Below, piece by piece: positions 4,307 to 55,518 of a stretch of 64,000 bases of DNA. The notes under the pieces are model-generated. The model saw only the letters and a list, made by a program, of their open reading frames with translations. It had not been told where the DNA came from and ran no database searches. A program made the translations under genes and the position numbers. Location of the stretch: NCBI GenBank assembly GCA_963748215.1, contig CAVVHS010000005.1, forward strand, positions 225,771 to 289,770, written 5' to 3'. Every line of letters starts with the position of its first letter. Within the stretch, counting starts at the first letter, position 1. Origin of the DNA: an uncultured Gammaproteobacteria bacterium (lineage in GTDB: Bacteria; Pseudomonadota; Gammaproteobacteria; UBA9214).

Positions 4307-5281
4307 ATGAACGACACCAAACTGCAGGAGCTCGCCCTGGCGGTCATCGATACCGAGGCGCGCGCCGTCGACCGGCTGGCCGATGAAATCCGCAAGCCCT
4401 CGTTCGCGCATGCCTGTCACCTGATGCTGGACTGCCGCGGACGCGTCGTCGTCACCGGCATGGGCAAGTCCGGCCACATCGCCGGCAAGATCGCCGCGAC
4501 CCTGGCCAGCACCGGCACCCCCGCCTTTTTCGTGCATCCGGGCGAGGCCAGCCACGGCGACCTCGGCATGATCACGGCGTCCGACGTGCTGCTGGCGCTG
4601 TCCAATTCCGGGGAAACCGCCGAAATCGTCACCATCCTGCCGATCATCAAGCGTCTCAAGGTGCCGCTGATCGCCATGACCGGCAATCCGGAATCCACCC
4701 TGTCGCAGGCCGCCACCGCCAACATCAACGTCAGCGTGGAAAAGGAGGCCTGTCCGCTCGGCCTGGCGCCGACCGCCAGCACCACGGCCGCGCTGGCCAT
4801 GGGCGATGCCCTGGCCATTGCCCTGCTGGAGACGCGCGGCTTCACGGCGGAGGATTTCGCACGCTCCCACCCGGGCGGCACGCTGGGGCGGCGCCTGCTG
4901 CTGCTGATCGATGACCTGATGCACACCGGCGACGCCATCCCGCGTGTGTCGCCCGACACCCTGCTCAGCGATGCACTGGTGGAGATGACCCGCAAGGGCC
5001 TGGGCATGACCGCGGTGGTGGATGCCGATGGCAGGCTGGCCGGCGTGTTCACCGACGGCGACCTGCGTCGCACCATCGATCATCGCATCGACCTGCACAC
5101 CGCCCGCGTCAGCGAGGTGATGACCGCCAGCTGCAAGACGGTGCATCCCGGCATGCTCGCCGCGGAAGCCCTGCAGATCATGGACGACAACAAGATCAAC
5201 GCCCTGCCCGTAATCAATGACGATAACCAGATCGTCGGCGCGCTCAACATGCACGACCTGCTGCGCGCCGGCGTGGTATAA
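4307..5281 (+). CDS. kdsD: Arabinose-5-phosphate isomerase (SIS+CBS)
   Basis: GMGKSGHIA.KIAATLASTGTP, HPGEASHGDLG, CBS pair. Confidence 0.96.
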   Translation: MNDTKLQELALAVIDTEARAVDRLADEIRKPSFAHACHLMLDCRGRVVVTGMGKSGHIAGKIAATLASTGTPAFFVHPGEASHGDLGMITASDVLLALSNSGETAEIVTILPIIKRLKVPLIAMTGNPESTLSQAATANINVSVEKEACPLGLAPTASTTAALAMGDALAIALLETRGFTAEDFARSHPGGTLGRRLLLLIDDLMHTGDAIPRVSPDTLLSDALVEMTRKGLGMTAVVDADGRLAGVFTDGDLRRTIDHRIDLHTARVSEVMTASCKTVHPGMLAAEALQIMDDNKINALPVINDDNQIVGALNMHDLLRAGVV

Positions 5282-5293
5282 CTTCCCGTCACC

Positions 5294-5815
5294 ATGAAAG
5301 ACATACTCGAAAAGGCCGCACGCATCCGATTACTGATCTTCGACGTCGACGGCGTGCTCACCGACGGCAGCCTGTTCATTGGCGACGACGGCCAGGAATA
5401 CAAGGCCTTCAACTCGCGCGACGGTCACGGCATCAAGATGCTGCAGAAGCACGGCGTCATCGTCGGCATTATCACCGGCCGCACCTCGAAAGTCGTCGAG
5501 CACCGCATGGCGAACCTGGGCGTCACCCATGTCTACCAGGGCAAACTTGAGAAGCTGCCGGCCTTCGAGGAACTCATCGACAAGCTCGGCATCACTCCAC
5601 AGGAGACAGCCTATGTCGGCGACGATGTGGTCGACCTGCCGGTCATGCGCCGCGTCGGACTGGCCATCGCCGTGCAGGACGCGCATCCTCTGGTGGTGCG
5701 CCACAGTCACTGGCAGACACCCCGCGGCGGTGGCCGCGGCGCGGCGCGCGACGTGTGCGAAATGCTGATGGAAGCGCGCGGCGTGCTCAAGCGGGAACTG
5801 GACAGCTACCTGTGA
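5294..5815 (+). CDS. kdsC: KDO-8-phosphate phosphatase
   Basis: HAD motif DVDGVLTDG, GDDVVD, GGRGAAR. Confidence 0.96.
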   Translation: MKDILEKAARIRLLIFDVDGVLTDGSLFIGDDGQEYKAFNSRDGHGIKMLQKHGVIVGIITGRTSKVVEHRMANLGVTHVYQGKLEKLPAFEELIDKLGITPQETAYVGDDVVDLPVMRRVGLAIAVQDAHPLVVRHSHWQTPRGGGRGAARDVCEMLMEARGVLKRELDSYL

Positions 5816-6375
5816 GCAACGCCCGCACGGTCATTCTGCTGCTGGTAGCACTGCTGGTGGTGGCCACCAGCTGGTTTTCCCGCCAGCAGGGCTCCCCCGG
5901 CGATTTGGCGGTCTTCACCGAGCGAGGTCCCGACGCCTACGCGGACGACGTCACCATCCGGGTTATGGATGCGGACGGCCAGCCCGTCTACCGACTGCGC
6001 GCCGCACACATTGCCTGGTATCCGGACAACGACCAGCTGGCGCTGCGCCAGCCACAACTCGATGTGACGCGGCCCGATGGCGCACGCTGGCAACTGACCG
6101 CGGAACAGGGCCGGACCGGCCGCGCCGGCGACCCGATTTCCCTGACCGGTAAGGTTATTATTCAAAGGCTTGAATCTGACTCACAGAATCCACTCAAGAT
6201 CACAACCAGCGACGTGACAGTCCTGGCGGACGCCCGCTTGGCGTTGACGGAAAGCGCCGCACAGGTGAGCGGACCGGGCTATCGCTTCGAGTCACTGGGA
6301 CTGTCGGCGGACTTCAGCGAAAACCGTCTGGAGTTGCGTTCGCAGGTACGGGGCAATATCGATGGCAAGAGCTAG
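5812..6375 (+). CDS. lptC: LPS export protein LptC
   Basis: N-terminal TM then beta-jellyroll-type sequence; GTG start overlaps kdsC stop (GTGA); synteny. Confidence 0.88.
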   Translation: MSNARTVILLLVALLVVATSWFSRQQGSPGDLAVFTERGPDAYADDVTIRVMDADGQPVYRLRAAHIAWYPDNDQLALRQPQLDVTRPDGARWQLTAEQGRTGRAGDPISLTGKVIIQRLESDSQNPLKITTSDVTVLADARLALTESAAQVSGPGYRFESLGLSADFSENRLELRSQVRGNIDGKS

Positions 6376-50559: not shown

Positions 50560-51912
50560 ATGGACAAACGGCTCGCACTGGTTGTAGACGACTCCAGGAC
50601 GGCGCGCGATACACTCAAGCGCATGCTGGACAAGCATGGCCTTGACGTCGACACGCTGGAATCGGCACAGCAGGCACTCGACTACCTGCAGGACCACACC
50701 CCCGACGTCATCTTCATGGACCACATGATGCCGGGCATGGACGGGTTCCAGGCCGTGGAGGCGATCAAGGGCAACCCTGACACCGCCACCATCCCCATCA
50801 TGATGTACACCTCCAAGGAAGGCGACCTGTACGTCAGCCAGGCACGCGCCCTCGGCGCTATCGGCATCCTGCCCAAGCAGGTCGAACCGGCCGAGCTGTT
50901 CGAGGTGCTCAACAAGCTCGGACTGGTCAGTGAGCGCCGGCGCCGGAGTACCGAGAGCAACCGCTTCGTGCTGATGGACAACGTTCCGGAGATTGCCCTG
51001 TCCGCTACCCGCGAGGAAATCCAGGAGATCGCCGAACAGGCCGCACAGGCCGTCGGTGGCAAACATGATGCGCTTGGCACCCAGGGTCACCTGGGCGAAT
51101 TGCTCGAGGACTACCACCACGAAATGGTGGAGAACATGCAGGAACTGAAGACCGCGCTCGACGCGCAGGCCATGCGCGGCATACGCCCGCTGACCGCGCT
51201 GCTGGTGCCGCTGGTAATCATGCTGATGCTGATCCCGCTGCTGTGGATCTACCACGACAGCAGCACGGCCCGAGCCGAACTCGGCGACGCCAACCGGCGC
51301 ATCAGCGAACTGGTCGCGGCGCAACAGGATTTCACCAGCAACGAGCACAACGAAAGCAGCACCCTGCGGCAGCAGCTGAGCCAGCGCGACGACCAGGCAC
51401 GCCGGCAGGCGCGTATGCTCTACGACAGCATCACCTGGGCGATCAACCAGGGCAGTGCGTACGACGTGCACGAGGAAGCGTTCAGCGACCGACGCCTGAC
51501 GGTGGTCCAGGAACTGGTGACGCGCCTGAGGTCACTCGGCTTCCAAGGTACGGTGCAGCTGGAGTCCCACCTCGGCGAATTCTGCCTGAGTGGCAACGAC
51601 GTGGACGGTTATGTCGAGGCGCCGGCCGACCTGCCGGTCACATCCTGCGACCTGGTCGGCCATCCCCTGCAGCAAATACCTGCGCTAGGCGAGCGCCAGT
51701 CGATCGCATTCGCCAACTTCCTCGCCACCTCGCCGCTGGTCAACAGCGGCGACATCCACCTCGAGATTGCGTCATTCCTGTTCAGCCGGCCGCGCATCCC
51801 CTACCCGCCGCAGGTCGACACCGTCATGGCATACGAGTGGAACCGCGTTGCGGCCGCCAACAACCGCGTCGATGTCAGGCTGGTGCCGGACACGGAATCG
51901 TCGCGGCAATGA
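50560..51912 (+). CDS. Membrane-spanning response regulator (REC - helical - TM - degenerate OmpA/MotB-like domain)
   Basis: VVDDS, FMDHMMPGMDG, YTS, PK; TM LTALLVPLVIMLMLIPLLWIY; ends AAANNRVDVRL. Confidence 0.8.
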   Translation: MDKRLALVVDDSRTARDTLKRMLDKHGLDVDTLESAQQALDYLQDHTPDVIFMDHMMPGMDGFQAVEAIKGNPDTATIPIMMYTSKEGDLYVSQARALGAIGILPKQVEPAELFEVLNKLGLVSERRRRSTESNRFVLMDNVPEIALSATREEIQEIAEQAAQAVGGKHDALGTQGHLGELLEDYHHEMVENMQELKTALDAQAMRGIRPLTALLVPLVIMLMLIPLLWIYHDSSTARAELGDANRRISELVAAQQDFTSNEHNESSTLRQQLSQRDDQARRQARMLYDSITWAINQGSAYDVHEEAFSDRRLTVVQELVTRLRSLGFQGTVQLESHLGEFCLSGNDVDGYVEAPADLPVTSCDLVGHPLQQIPALGERQSIAFANFLATSPLVNSGDIHLEIASFLFSRPRIPYPPQVDTVMAYEWNRVAAANNRVDVRLVPDTESSRQ

Positions 51913-51983
51913 CTCGGCCGGCTGTTGCCGGCACTCCTAAAGAAGAGACAAGCCGCACGGCTCCCGGGCACCCATGGATGCCA

Positions 51984-52037
51984 GGTTTCAGCCCGATTAT
52001 GTCGGATAAGCGCCGCCCGGCGAGAAATGCGGGCCAG
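51984..52037. repeat. Right-end remnant of the 31462-31718 MITE family
   Basis: GGTTTCAGCCCGATTATGTCGGATAAGCGCCGCCCGGCGAGAAATGCGGGCCAG aligns with 31666-31718. Confidence 0.75.
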
Positions 52038-52202
52038 GAGCCTGTCCGAGTAATCTGTGCGTAGCGAGGCGAGTGGGATAGCGTGGACAGTTTTGCGATC
52101 GTTCGAGGAGAATAGCGGGTTCTATTTGACGAGAAGGATCGTAAAAATGGGCCGCTTCCCCACCGCCGCAGTAGCAACATGATTATTCGGACAGGCGCCT
52201 AG
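52034..52202. mobile_element. 169-bp MITE-like structured element, copy B
   Basis: Same length and core as 7695-7863; the right end overlaps the TAG of the coiled-coil gene. Confidence 0.85.
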
Positions 52203-53053
52203 CGCACACCCCAGAAGAAAATTGCGCCTGCTACTGCCAGTACCAGCGCGAAAACAGCAACCAGCATGATATTTCTCAGGCGCTCAGCCTGCTTGTGCAA
52301 CTGCACCTGTGCGTCCTCGAACAGCTTGTGCTGAAGCCTGTGCTCTGCCTCGAGCTTCTTTTCCAGGGCCATGACCTGTTGACTGGTTGCCTCGAGCTGT
52401 ACGGTGGTGGAAGCGAGGTAAGTCTCGAGTGTCCGGGCCTGTTCCTCTTTCGCTGCACGCAACGCCTCGAGTGCGCTGTCCGTGGATTCGAAACGGCTGA
52501 CTGTCTGAGCCAGAGAGGCCTCGAGTGTCTTGATCTGTTCATATGCTGCATCCAGCCGCGCCTCGAGCGCGTCGTCCCTGGTTTCCAGCCGGCTTGCTGA
52601 TTCGGCCAGCGCAGTCTTGAGAACCTGCAGTTGTTCGCGTGCAGAATCCTGCAGGAACTTGAGCTGGTTGCCCCGGGTTTCCAGCCGGTGCGTTGTTTCA
52701 GTCAGGGAGGCCTCGAGCGCCATGACCTGTGAATGCCCCGCCTCGCGTGCCTGTTCAGTCTCGACGAGCCGCTGTTCCAGTTCGTCCAGCCTTCTGGCGT
52801 GGGCCATTCTGGCGGTCCCGGTTTCCCGGCGGCTCTCCTCCAGGTCCTCGACTTTCTGCAGGATTAGCAGGGCACGGCGCTCGGACTGGGACCGCATTAG
52901 TTCCAGTTTCCCGGCGAGGGCCTGATTCTCTGCTGTGAGTTCCAGCAGCTCCCGTTCGAGCGCTTCCTGGCGCTGCCGCGGGCTCGATTGCAGTCCGAGA
53001 AGTTTGTTTATACTGGCTGCGGCGCTGCGCCAGTACTGCTTGAGATTGTTCAA
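52199..53053 (-). CDS. Tail-anchored coiled-coil protein with 32-aa repeats
   Basis: E/L/Q/A-rich heptads, C-terminal TM IMLVAVFALVLAVAGAIFFW; TTG start after AAGG. Confidence 0.8.
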   Translation of the reverse strand: MNNLKQYWRSAAASINKLLGLQSSPRQRQEALERELLELTAENQALAGKLELMRSQSERRALLILQKVEDLEESRRETGTARMAHARRLDELEQRLVETEQAREAGHSQVMALEASLTETTHRLETRGNQLKFLQDSAREQLQVLKTALAESASRLETRDDALEARLDAAYEQIKTLEASLAQTVSRFESTDSALEALRAAKEEQARTLETYLASTTVQLEATSQQVMALEKKLEAEHRLQHKLFEDAQVQLHKQAERLRNIMLVAVFALVLAVAGAIFFWGVR

Positions 53054-53304
53054 TACATTTACCTTTTATTTTATTGTTTTATATAAATATTTGTTTTTCG
53101 ATGTTAGCACGCCTGTATCCTGCGAGTACAGAGACCCGATGGGGAGCATGCCAGACCTGCAGGCTGTGACACTCTGCTGAAAGATGTAATAAACTAGGAT
53201 TCGAGGTGTGCCGGATTGTTGTTTCAGAATACCATTATCACAGGCAGCTCACCTATTGCAGGTGCGCGTATCGCTCGCCTTGCCGGCGTCCCCACAGGCT
53301 TCTT

Positions 53305-54480
53305 ATGAGTTGTCAATCGGATATAAAGAAGACCGTGCTGCAGGGTGTCTACGAGGACAACGCGGGCATACCCCGTTCCTTTCGTGGCAAGGGGCGAACG
53401 AGACACGCTATCGGGGCACAGCCTGCCGGGCAACGGACCTGGTACCGAAGCAGGGCTGTGGTCGTCGCCTTACTGGGCCTTGTTGCACTGGTCGGCATCA
53501 ACTTCCGGCTGGTCACGGTGGACGTAACCGGGCCGGTCGCCATGCAGGTGCTGGACGAGCCGTCCCTGACCTTGCCGGCGATACCCATGTCCATGCTGGC
53601 CAGTCCGGGGGTTGCGCCCGGCATCGACAGCGTACCTCCATCCAGTCTTGAGCCATTGCAGGCCATCAGGGATGCTGCCACCACGAGCGGTCATTATGAC
53701 GCCATGCTTGGCCGTCTCGGCATGTCGATGGCAGACCTGTTCAACCTCAAGGTTCAGACGATCGTCATCGACCCGGGACACGGCGGAATCGATCCGGGCG
53801 CCACGGGCCATCAGGGCCTGAAGGAGAAGGACGTCGTGCTGGATATCGCCAGGCGACTCAGGGACAAGCTCGCCGGGTCCGGGAAGTATCGCGTCCTGCT
53901 TACCCGTGACGAGGACAAAAAGGTCTATCTGAAAGAGCGGGTGGCCTTCGCGAAGGAGAACCGCGCGGACCTGTTCATCTCGATCCATATCAACTCCCTC
54001 CCGGCCGAGGCCCGACAGCTCAATTATGTCGAGACCTATTACTTCGGGCCGCACACGGATCAGCGCTCACTGGAACTGGCAGAGAAGGAAAACCACGACT
54101 CCGACTACCTCATGGGGGACTTTCGCGAGGTCATCGCCAGGATCGGCGACACGCTGAAGACCGAGGAATCGAAAGAGCTTGCCGGCTCCATACACAAACG
54201 CCTTTACAGCAATCTGAAACGCCACAATCGTGATCTGCTTAACGCCAGATCGAAGACAGGACCGTTTATGGTACTGTTGGGTGTGGAGGTGCCGAGCGTG
54301 CTGGTGGAGGTTTCCTGCATCAGCAACAAGGCGGAGGAAACCCGGTTGAATAGCCCACAGTATCGTGACGCTGTTGCGGGCTACCTGAGGACGGGGATCA
54401 TCGAATACCTTGAACAGCGCGAATACCGCAGATCTATAGAAAGAGGAAAAACACAACATGTCGCCAAGCAAGAAAGATAA
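53305..54480 (+). CDS. Membrane-anchored N-acetylmuramoyl-L-alanine amidase (Amidase_3)
   Basis: IVIDPGHGG.DPGA, LKEKD, LTR, ADLFISIH.N, PSVLVEV; TM at VVVALLGLVALVGI. Confidence 0.92.
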   Translation: MSCQSDIKKTVLQGVYEDNAGIPRSFRGKGRTRHAIGAQPAGQRTWYRSRAVVVALLGLVALVGINFRLVTVDVTGPVAMQVLDEPSLTLPAIPMSMLASPGVAPGIDSVPPSSLEPLQAIRDAATTSGHYDAMLGRLGMSMADLFNLKVQTIVIDPGHGGIDPGATGHQGLKEKDVVLDIARRLRDKLAGSGKYRVLLTRDEDKKVYLKERVAFAKENRADLFISIHINSLPAEARQLNYVETYYFGPHTDQRSLELAEKENHDSDYLMGDFREVIARIGDTLKTEESKELAGSIHKRLYSNLKRHNRDLLNARSKTGPFMVLLGVEVPSVLVEVSCISNKAEETRLNSPQYRDAVAGYLRTGIIEYLEQREYRRSIERGKTQHVAKQER

Positions 54481-55477
54481 CATGCTATACGTCGGGATTG
54501 ACCTGGGCACCTCCAGGTCGGTGGTATCCGCCAGCAATGGAAACCGCAAATGGGTGGAGAGCTATGTCGGCTGGCCAAAGGATTTCGTTGCCAAGAAGAT
54601 GCTCGGTAAAAGCGTGCTGTTCGGCAGCGAGGCCCTCGAGCACCGGCTTGCGCTTCATCTCACCCGTCCACTGCGCAACGGCATTATCACGGAAGGCACC
54701 GAGCGGGACGAGGCCGCCGTGCATGAGTTGATCGACCACCTGATCGAACTGGCCGGGGCAGGTCCGGATAACGAGATCTGTGTTGCGGTAGGTGTCCCGG
54801 CCGAAGCGCTCAAGGTCAACAAGATTGCCATCAGGAATGCCGTGGCCCAGCATGCCAAGAAGCTGATGGTGGTTTCCGAGCCCTTCTCCGTGGCCTACGG
54901 ACTGGGCGCGCTGGACAACACCATGATCATCGATATCGGCGCCGGCACCGTGGATTTCTGCATCATGCATGGCACCGTACCTGCGGATGAGGACCAGCGG
55001 AGCATCCTCATGGCGGGCGACTACGTGGACGAGCAGCTATTCAAGCTGCTGTCGGAAAAACACCCCGAGGCCGATTTCTCAATCAACACCGTGCGCAAGT
55101 TCAAGGAAAAACACGGCTTCGTGGGGGAGCCGAAGCGGCGGGTCAAGATCGAGGCACCGGTGGACGGGAAATTCACGGAATTCGATATCACCAACGAAAT
55201 GCGCAAGGCCTGCGAGAGTCCCATGCCTGCCATTGTCGAGACTGTCATCGACCTCATCGGGAGCTTCGACCCCGAGTTCCAGGAAAGCGTGCGCAACAAC
55301 ATCATTATTGCGGGTGGCGGGAGCCAGCTCACGGGCCTGGATACCTATCTCGGCGAAGCCACCAGGCAATTCGGACCCTGCAGTTTTTCCTGCATCACTG
55401 ATCCGCTCTATGCGGGTGCGGATGGCGCGCTGGAACTGGCAGTGGACATGCCCGAGGAATTCCTCGAGAAACTGTAA
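54458..55477 (+). CDS. MamK-like bacterial actin
   Basis: GIDLGTS, VGWPKD, VGVPA, VVSEPF.VAYGL, IDIGAGT.D, GTVP..EDQ, AGDYVDE, AGGGS; GAGG RBS inside the amidase 3' end. Confidence 0.9.
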   Translation: MSPSKKDNMLYVGIDLGTSRSVVSASNGNRKWVESYVGWPKDFVAKKMLGKSVLFGSEALEHRLALHLTRPLRNGIITEGTERDEAAVHELIDHLIELAGAGPDNEICVAVGVPAEALKVNKIAIRNAVAQHAKKLMVVSEPFSVAYGLGALDNTMIIDIGAGTVDFCIMHGTVPADEDQRSILMAGDYVDEQLFKLLSEKHPEADFSINTVRKFKEKHGFVGEPKRRVKIEAPVDGKFTEFDITNEMRKACESPMPAIVETVIDLIGSFDPEFQESVRNNIIIAGGGSQLTGLDTYLGEATRQFGPCSFSCITDPLYAGADGALELAVDMPEEFLEKL

Positions 55478-55518
55478 GCAACCGGTTGTACCCTGCGCGG
55501 GTACGGCCCGTCGCCAAC

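Follow-up and report, generated by a model that had tools for sequence, protein, structure and literature searches.

We analysed a stretch of 64,000 nt from an uncultured gammaproteobacterium (GCA_963748215.1, contig CAVVHS010000005.1, positions 225,771 to 289,770 of the forward strand), which is called the window in the following. The subject is a block of three open reading frames (ORFs): a coiled-coil gene (52199-53053, minus strand), an amidase ORF (53206-54480, plus strand) and an actin gene (54458-55477, plus strand). These coordinates agree with those of an earlier note made from the sequence alone, here the original prediction, which had proposed a MamK-like actin coupled to a membrane-anchored peptidoglycan amidase. 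According to our best reading the amidase gene, starting at 53305, and the MamK-like actin gene form one two-gene module, composed as follows (AF2, AlphaFold2; pLDDT, predicted local distance difference test; TM, transmembrane).

53305-54480, plus strand: bitopic N-acetylmuramoyl-L-alanine amidase of 391 aa with cytoplasmic tail, TM helix, linker and Amidase_3 domain (Pfam, in-frame stops of relatives, alignment, AF2, Foldseek)
53314-53364, plus strand: cytoplasmic N-terminal helix (residues 4-20) with the motif VLQGVYEDN, a predicted actin-binding peptide (motif conservation, AF2, complex prediction)
53443-53502, plus strand: single TM helix (residues 47-66), N-in by the preceding basic residues (AF2; position kept in the orthologue alignment)
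53752-54438, plus strand: periplasmic Amidase_3 catalytic domain (residues 150-378) with an insert of the AmiA/B/C type (pLDDT ~90, invariant residues, phmmer)
54440-54447, plus strand: Shine-Dalgarno-like AAGAGGAA within the last amidase codons, 10 nt 5' of the actin ATG (sequence reading)
54458-55477, plus strand: MamK-like actin-fold ATPase of 339 aa, amidase-linked subfamily (NCBIfam, PDB, trees)

The actin ATG at 54458 precedes the amidase TAA at 54478-54480, leading to an overlap of 23 nt. Start codon and ribosome-binding site hence lie within the last amidase codons, just as originally described. The same overlap occurs in 22 of the 33 genome loci with a linked amidase (see below). In two metatranscriptome runs, parts of the block are covered by contigs of close relatives, whereby uncovered parts carry no meaning. 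One of these contigs (276 nt, 5 differences) spans the amidase-actin junction at 54395-54670. As DNA may be present in libraries of this kind, it hints only weakly at co-transcription. The remaining contigs give no information on expression level, strand or transcript ends.

Linkage of both genes was surveyed in genomes and metagenomes. The genome scan used one genome per species and returned 34 loci, for which gene order was determined by tblastn. The amidase lies directly 5' of the actin in 33 of them: 22 loci of gammaproteobacterial type with 76-99% actin identity (one retaining only the first 51 actin codons at a contig end), nine from Rhodothermota/Bacteroidota with 59-68% (one actin being cut) and two from Acidobacteriota with 51%. 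The sole unlinked locus stems from a member of the Planctomycetia, shows 41% identity and falls outside the clade of linked actins. The metagenome scan, which was based on an alignment of nine sequences, returned 80 loci, 71 of which have the amidase directly 5' of the actin. Six of the nine unlinked loci offer ≤195 nt of upstream DNA. Two more (47% identity, N-terminally extended actins, 470 and 514 nt of upstream DNA) are located outside the clade, and the ninth, L085, is considered further below. Overall, linkage is found in 104 of 108 informative loci from at least three named phyla. The adjacency noticed at a single locus is thus widely conserved. An all-against-all clustering of the ORFs from 115 loci identified only three conserved genes, namely the actin (111), the amidase (103) and the coiled-coil gene (22); the remaining large clusters are antisense shadows of these.

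The distribution within the order of the window's organism follows the same pattern. Of 54 species genomes, 16 encode the actin, among them 11 of the 26 high-quality ones. For the tailed amidase the number is 17, i.e. the same 16, with adjacent coordinates on the same contig, and one further genome (G006). There, the amidase coordinates match those of locus L036, whose contig ends 51 codons into the actin. The other 37 genomes contain neither gene. As the genomes are related, this joint presence and absence does not amount to a statistical test; it shows that the amidase-actin pair behaves as one accessory unit that is gained and lost together within the order. One metagenome-assembled genome (MAG), G010, carries the whole pair twice on contigs C1 and C20 (L015 and L016) with identical actins, which may reflect a duplication or two strains binned together.

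The amidase ORF is open from 53206 on, as originally described. The start is another one: close relatives have in-frame stops 5' of the codon that matches M34 of the long ORF, and we therefore place the amidase start at the ATG at 53305, giving a protein of 391 aa. All residue numbers refer to M1 at this position. The AF2 model comprises a cytoplasmic N-terminal tail of ~46-50 aa with a helix at residues 5-20, a TM helix at 47-66, a low-confidence linker at 66-148 and the catalytic domain at 150-378. Mean pLDDT is 67 for the whole protein and ~90 for the catalytic domain. The hydrophobic TM stretch keeps its position in the orthologue alignment. Because basic residues precede it, the N-terminus should be cytoplasmic according to the positive-inside rule. 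The linker of ~85 residues varies among orthologues in both sequence and length.

The catalytic part is assigned to Amidase_3 (PF01520) with 160.9 bits against a cut-off of 27 (4e-47). Twenty-five orthologues, whose identity to the window protein is 33-97%, all retain the Zn ligands H159, E174 and H228 as well as the catalytic E335. Foldseek ranks E. coli AmiA, AmiC and AmiB together with Bartonella AmiB first. In phmmer searches the protein aligns to Bartonella AmiB (3ne8), AmiC (4bin) and AmiA (8c2o) through residues 250-310, while shorter amidases align only to about residue 250. We conclude from this that the enzyme has an insert of the AmiA/B/C type. It follows the third Zn ligand, precedes the catalytic Glu and is modelled with helices at 253-264 and 270-280 at lower pLDDT. 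This region presumably corresponds to the one holding the auto-inhibitory regulatory helix in the division amidases. Judged by its sequence, the enzyme is thus probably auto-inhibited and may need a LytM-type activator as well.

In other respects the protein departs from the division amidases. The Pfam scan detects no AMIN domain, and a membrane anchor with N-in topology takes the place of a cleavable export signal. All NCBIfam equivalog cut-offs are missed (AmiA 122/400, AmiB 88/532, AmiC 112/700 and CwlD 128/222 bits), with CwlD being the top match by E-value. The own genome encodes a second Amidase_3 protein with the canonical AMIN-Amidase_3-LysM layout, so that the actin-linked enzyme represents an extra paralogue. 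The features originally listed for the amidase, i.e. intact Zn and catalytic residues, a cytoplasmic N-terminus of ~50 aa, one TM helix and no AMIN domain, all hold.

The cytoplasmic tail carries a conserved motif. In all 22 sequences of gammaproteobacterial type (21 loci and the window) VL[RQK][GS]V[YF]E[DE]N starts at residue 11, reading VLQGVYEDN in the window protein. The counterparts are [IM][LF][RQ]x[VI]YE[DE]N in Rhodothermota and [LV]LRQAVADN in Acidobacteriota, which leads to the general form h-L-[RKQ]-x-h-h-x-[DE]-N across phyla. Of 103 amidase ORFs, 76 match a strict pattern of the motif. Seventeen of the other 27 carry variants recognizable by eye (e.g. LVRENL or VREDN, with the Asn kept), and the last ten are cut by contig ends or miscalled. 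All amidase N-termini that are complete thus have the motif.

The original prediction had proposed that this tail, along with the coiled coil, links the actin to the envelope. A complex prediction based on the alignments of the actin and of amidase residues 1-48 agrees with a contact between tail and actin. The interaction prediction score from aligned errors (ipSAE) reaches 0.86, 0.88 and 0.88 in three runs, compared to 0.00 for the best of three controls. Of 80 solved complexes 58 attain the mark applied to this score, as do 2 of 110 mismatched pairs; these counts are only a rough guide here because own alignments were used. Contacts agree by at least 75% between the runs, and the pLDDT of the partner is 64-69. 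The predicted contact involves tail residues 4-32 (core 7-20) and actin residues 126, 136-139, 147, 152-153, 171-178, 269-274 and 327-339. Going by the usual subdomain order of the actin fold, we take these residues to line the cleft between subdomains IA and IIA. At the interface position R126, 97% of the clade members have R or K, and mostly L, I or V is found outside the clade. This pattern fits a contact with the acidic residue preceding the invariant Asn of the tail. Based on these models, the amidase tail probably binds the actin.

The actin itself was aligned with solved MamK. All of the motifs DLGT, VGWPKD, EICVAVGVPA, VVSEPFSVAYGL, DIGAGT, GTVPADEDQ, AGDYVDE, GGGS and GALELAVDMP are present, in line with the ATPase and MamK-type motifs named originally. 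The nucleotide-binding motifs DLGT, SEP, DIGAGT and GGGS are invariant across 26 actin sequences. NCBIfam scores are 407 bits for MamK (cut-off 400, hence marginal), 200 for BeeR (cut-off 530) and 86 for MreB. Against the PDB, MamK (5ljw) yields 297 bits over residues 6-337, followed by BeeR (8r2n) with 141 and MreB with ≤58. The Pfam family MreB_Mbl is matched weakly (88.7 bits). By Pfam, NCBIfam and PDB scores the protein is therefore far closer to MamK than to MreB or plasmid actin-like proteins.

Two trees were calculated. The first one (IQ-TREE quick mode, LG+G4) holds 101 rows: 32 locus proteins, the actin domains of 68 full-length representatives of 50% clusters, and the MreB of the own genome as outgroup. 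The linked actins form one clade with a support of 99 (Shimodaira-Hasegawa-like approximate likelihood ratio test). The second one (FastTree, 177 rows) additionally includes the metagenome loci and leaves out actin ORFs of <300 aa. Here, the smallest clade with all 99 linked rows comprises 108 rows at a local support of 95. The other nine rows comprise L085, three representatives that lack context and five rows of unknown linkage, with amidase fragments being visible in two of the latter (L104 and L106). The 65 remaining representatives all branch outside, and so do the unlinked loci L034, L098 and L102. The actin tree groups by phylum. Since the trees contain no named MamK, ParM or FtsA sequences, the placement relative to these rests on scores of hidden Markov models.

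In terms of the MamK model, the sister clades score 327-425 bits and the representative P0138 scores 508 bits. P0138, the best fit, is located near the base of the tree, far from the amidase-linked clade. By sequence, the actin is a member of a separate amidase-linked subfamily within the MamK-like radiation and does not belong to the group of P0138. The originally assumed membership in the MamK clade consequently holds for the radiation as a whole; it does not hold with respect to the best-scoring MamK-type representative.

Further observations concern the radiation as such. A tight MamK-like clade (P0134, P0136, P0137, P0139, P0140, P0142-P0149, P0153 and P0156) exhibits N-terminal extensions of 190-900 residues, resulting in 523-1232 aa in total. 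Seven scanned members revealed no Pfam domain in the extension. Likewise, a Pfam scan of ten N-terminally extended MamK-like proteins (404-1208 aa) found neither an amidase nor another domain in the extension, and thus no fused pair. The cluster of P0141 contains MamK-like actins that are 39-41% identical to the one of the window and are annotated in archaeal MAGs of ANME-2 and Methanosarcinales. The radiation thus seems to reach the archaea.

The block was originally described as lying outside any magnetosome cluster. We extended this to the whole genome (3.52 Mb in 9 contigs, 95% complete), which holds one MamK-like gene and one MreB gene. None of the models for MamA, MamE, MamI, MamO, MamP and MamQ is matched above cut-off, in a search run without a magnetotactic genome as positive control. 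They meet only generic proteins of HtrA, LemA and TPR type, far below cut-off. Hence there is no sign of a magnetosome island from which the block could have been displaced, and judged by its genome the actin is not a magnetosome gene.

The remaining features of the block are located 5' of the amidase gene.

51913-52198, no strand: two short dispersed repeat families resembling miniature inverted-repeat transposable elements (MITEs); border of the block, not a functional part (own-genome matches and inverted repeat)
52199-53053, minus strand: tail-anchored coiled-coil protein of 284 aa with TTG start, a divergent, lineage-specific accessory gene (ORF)
53054-53304, no strand: AT-rich divergent intergenic region of 251 nt with presumed promoters (GC bins, sequence)

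In the coiled-coil protein, a long coiled coil connects a conserved N-terminal L..QYWRK motif to a C-terminal membrane helix. It is considered tail-anchored because its last ~24 residues are hydrophobic. It has no Pfam match, only weak SMC-like matches, and its best score in the ESM Atlas (0.86) is below a meaningful level. Its divergent position across an AT-rich spacer is as originally noted. The gene is found in 18 of 22 genome loci of gammaproteobacterial type, with a position 3' of the actin in L014, and in none of the 12 others. Its proposed role as part of the module thus fits the gammaproteobacterial-type loci only: being confined to them, the gene is a lineage-specific add-on rather than a core part.

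The GC content is 0.52-0.63 across 52000-55500 of the window, with the lowest values in the bins 53000-53499 and 54000-54499, and 0.62-0.65 in the upstream flank. Bin 53000-53499 has 0.518 compared to ~0.62-0.65 in the flanks. A lower GC content of the block is compatible with acquisition by transfer, no proof of it. The divergent intergenic region contains a sigma-70-like match at 53166-53195. Scans for promoters and terminators stay within the range of shuffled sequences (2 promoter-like matches vs 1.4 expected, 3 terminator-like ones vs 3.6 expected).

The repeats at 51913-52198 are bordered by a response-regulator gene on one side and by the coiled-coil gene, with its 3' end, on the other. 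They have 35 matches in the own genome including themselves, spread over seven of the nine contigs. One family (~160 nt, ~ten copies at 71-92% identity) has inverted ends of 28 nt, here at 52028-52055 and 52181-52208. The other measures ~50 nt with ~25 copies. Of the MITE stack originally seen at this border, two dispersed repeat families, one with inverted ends, could be confirmed, i.e. the description holds in part.

Flanking genes differ among the lineages. The response regulator of the window (50560-51912) has a receiver domain followed by ~330 residues without Pfam match; the same gene adjoins a phosphoenolpyruvate (PEP) carboxylase gene in L003, L004 and L006. In the two Acidobacteria loci, L032 (2094-3685) and similarly L033, two genes are located ~2-3 kb upstream of the pair, one encoding an SPFH/Band 7 protein and the other a conserved protein of 197 aa without Pfam match. 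In Thiomargarita, mamK is reported to adjoin a flotillin-like gene (10.1101/2022.04.11.487978). The identified flank genes encode ordinary cellular functions, namely PEP carboxylase (by likeness), response regulator, cytochrome b561, outer-membrane barrel, M48 peptidase and Band 7, and no phage or transfer gene is among the examined flank genes of the window and the related loci. PADLOC gave no relevant match (a 20-bit match of the actin and weak ones of the coiled coil). In PHROGs, generic endolysin and partition-protein families are matched. Neither of the two indicates a defence or phage context.

We compared the pair to known systems. MamK (PDB 5ljw, 5jyg, 5ljv; NCBIfam NF040964) is the best family and the best solved structure for the actin, with common nucleotide-binding and MamK-type motifs. 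The window actin differs from it by not being among magnetosome genes, by forming a separate amidase-linked clade and by its position at the edge of the family model. MamK-like actins do exist and form filaments outside magnetotactic bacteria, as described for BeeR (PMC11929497), Saltatorellota (10.1101/817700) and Thiomargarita (10.1101/2022.04.11.487978). The word 'amidase' does not occur in these three papers, supplements apart. Moreover, we found no open-access paper or preprint, again apart from supplements, that describes a MamK-type actin with an amidase or a pairing of an actin homologue with an amidase tail.

For the enzyme, AmiA, AmiB and AmiC (8c2o, 8c0j, 3ne8, 4bin) are closest in fold and sequence, including the insert and the Zn and catalytic residues. 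Unlike these, the window enzyme has neither an AMIN domain nor a cleavable signal, and possesses an N-in anchor and a conserved cytoplasmic tail instead. LytH-ActH (7tj4) and CwlD-GerS (7rag) likewise combine an Amidase_3 enzyme with a dedicated partner protein. Those partners are, in the solved entries, extracellular domains or a lipoprotein rather than a cytoplasmic actin, and in the sequence search these enzymes align only to about residue 250-260.

In ParM-ParR, FtsA-FtsN and MreB-RodZ an actin-fold polymer is engaged by a short adaptor segment; FtsA is reported to recruit the bitopic FtsN. The adaptor in the window would itself be the wall hydrolase, and no DNA-binding or synthase partner is encoded. 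In terms of logic, the closest precedent appears to be the bactofilin BacA with the bitopic M23 endopeptidase LmdC. The two genes are adjacent in Hyphomonas and Rhodospirillum, the pairing is conserved across species, and LmdC's short N-terminal cytoplasmic part binds the bactofilin polymer (PMC10945521). A polymer gene next to the gene of a bitopic hydrolase and a conserved adjacency are common to both systems, whereas tail binding is only predicted in the actin-amidase pair. Moreover, the polymer of the window is an actin-fold ATPase as opposed to a nucleotide-independent bactofilin, and its hydrolase is an Amidase_3 enzyme having a tail with a helix motif instead of an M23 peptidase having a beta-hairpin tail.

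Taken together we favour a filament-tethered peptidoglycan amidase module, to which we assign a probability of roughly 60%. The actin would be a cytoplasmic, ATP-dependent filament former. The amidase would sit in the inner membrane, with its N-terminal cytoplasmic helix (h-L-[RKQ]-x-h-h-x-[DE]-N) docking in the IA/IIA cleft of the actin and its catalytic domain hanging in the periplasm on the flexible linker of ~85 residues, a leash that would let the enzyme reach the wall. In this way, the filament would tether, cluster or place an extra amidase at defined envelope sites, such that stem peptides are stripped from glycan strands locally and not everywhere. The module would be accessory and act in addition to an ordinary MreB and an ordinary division amidase of AMIN type. 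The filament-guided wall hydrolysis put forward in the original prediction is supported by conserved adjacency, joint presence and absence, and the tail motif. Polymerisation, enzyme activity, localisation and the cellular process, such as curvature or septum splitting, are what we infer on top of the predicted tail-actin contact.

Several points weigh against this reading. The first concerns the contact. Taken as a set, the predicted interface residues show little more conservation within the clade than the remainder of the actin (0.72 vs 0.69), and part of the ipSAE score could reflect likeness to solved peptide-in-cleft complexes of other actins. In ParM the IA/IIA pocket accommodates the adjacent subunit, with ParR being bound at the barbed end (PMC6599009). 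By analogy, a tail in this cleft may clash with the longitudinal contacts of a filament, and instead of decorating filaments, a cleft-bound tail might cap their ends or retain monomers. The second concerns the models and loci. The amidase model is weak outside the catalytic domain (pLDDT <50 at residues 27-46 and 66-148). Locus L085 (2020-5029) encodes an in-clade actin with 4 kb of upstream DNA, where an M48 peptidase-TPR gene and no amidase is found; no other actin of the clade lacks the amidase despite ample upstream DNA. All carriers found are MAGs or metagenome contigs. In the Acidobacteria MAG locus L033 the amidase (4979-6010) contains one in-frame stop, which may reflect an assembly error or a pseudogene, and was for that reason excluded from the orthologue alignment.

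Two rival readings take up the position of the tail, and we regard both as unlikely, neither being ahead of the other. The first is a cytomotive machine: the tail would occupy the barbed-end cleft of the actin like ParR on ParM, and insertional polymerisation or treadmilling would push or drag the amidase processively along the envelope. If so, a line or ring of denuded glycan strands would mark or weaken the wall for division, branching, cell separation or curvature, and the pair would be an actin motor with a peptidoglycan hydrolase as cargo. The second is a nucleotide-driven switch, in which an actin monomer or short oligomer would control, from across the membrane and without long filaments, either the oligomeric state of the amidase or its activity in an ATP-dependent manner, loosely like FtsEX-EnvC and its amidases. 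Binding and polymerisation could compete, given that the tail is predicted on a cleft used for subunit contacts in related actins. Translational coupling suggests similar amounts of both proteins, and the amidase has the regulatory insert of auto-inhibited amidases. On the other hand, a low-confidence, variable linker of ~85 residues would relay a conformational signal poorly, and the residues common with filament-forming MamK are retained.

Slightly less plausible still is a wall anchor, where the amidase domain mainly fixes the filament to the sacculus and the filament positions granules, compartments or DNA. MamK-type actins are known positioning tracks (PMC11929497), a bitopic layout would serve as wall tether, and the module is accessory and patchy, with the actin in 16 of the 54 genomes of the order. 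What speaks against it is that the 115 loci reveal no third conserved gene which could act as cargo adaptor. Moreover, all four catalytic residues are invariant among 25 orthologues of 33-97% identity, which speaks for an active enzyme, and a long disordered linker makes a poor rigid anchor.

A mobile-element, phage-lysis or anti-phage module, with the anchored amidase being released or activated to lyse the cell, is improbable. The Amidase_3 domain does match phage endolysin families, and the N-terminal membrane anchor may resemble that of signal-anchored endolysins. The patchy distribution, the somewhat lower GC content of the block and the flanking MITE-like repeats would fit as well. These points are opposed by the lack of a relevant PADLOC match, by examined flanks with ordinary cellular genes and without phage or transfer genes, by an actin tree that groups by phylum and by a catalytic domain of the cellular AmiA/B/C type with its insert. 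Finally, a displaced remnant of a magnetosome cluster, for which only the passing of the MamK cut-off (407 vs 400 bits) speaks, or mere neighbourhood without physical interaction are contradicted by context and conservation, since six magnetosome families are absent above cut-off, the actin clade lies apart from P0138 with its 508 bits, and linkage in 104 of 108 informative loci goes along with joint presence and absence; we consider them hardly credible.

The spatial restriction of dangerous wall hydrolases is a central open question in bacteria. Known answers are FtsZ/FtsA with FtsEX-EnvC, MreB with synthases and bactofilins with M23 peptidases. Compared to the known polymer-hydrolase couplings, polymer, enzyme and tail motif of the pair all differ and are in this sense new. 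If true, the filament-tethered amidase would be a fourth kind of link, namely an actin-fold ATPase hard-wired to an amidase via the enzyme's own cytoplasmic tail. It needs two genes only, occurs in more than 100 loci (Pseudomonadota, Rhodothermota/Bacteroidota, Acidobacteriota and further lineages) and is gained and lost as a unit, which renders it compact enough for reconstitution in a model host. Automatic labels such as 'MamK family' or 'rod shape-determining protein' on genes of this kind are uninformative on magnetosomes or MreB function. For part of the MamK-like radiation, the pair would thereby offer a concrete and testable function outside of magnetosomes.

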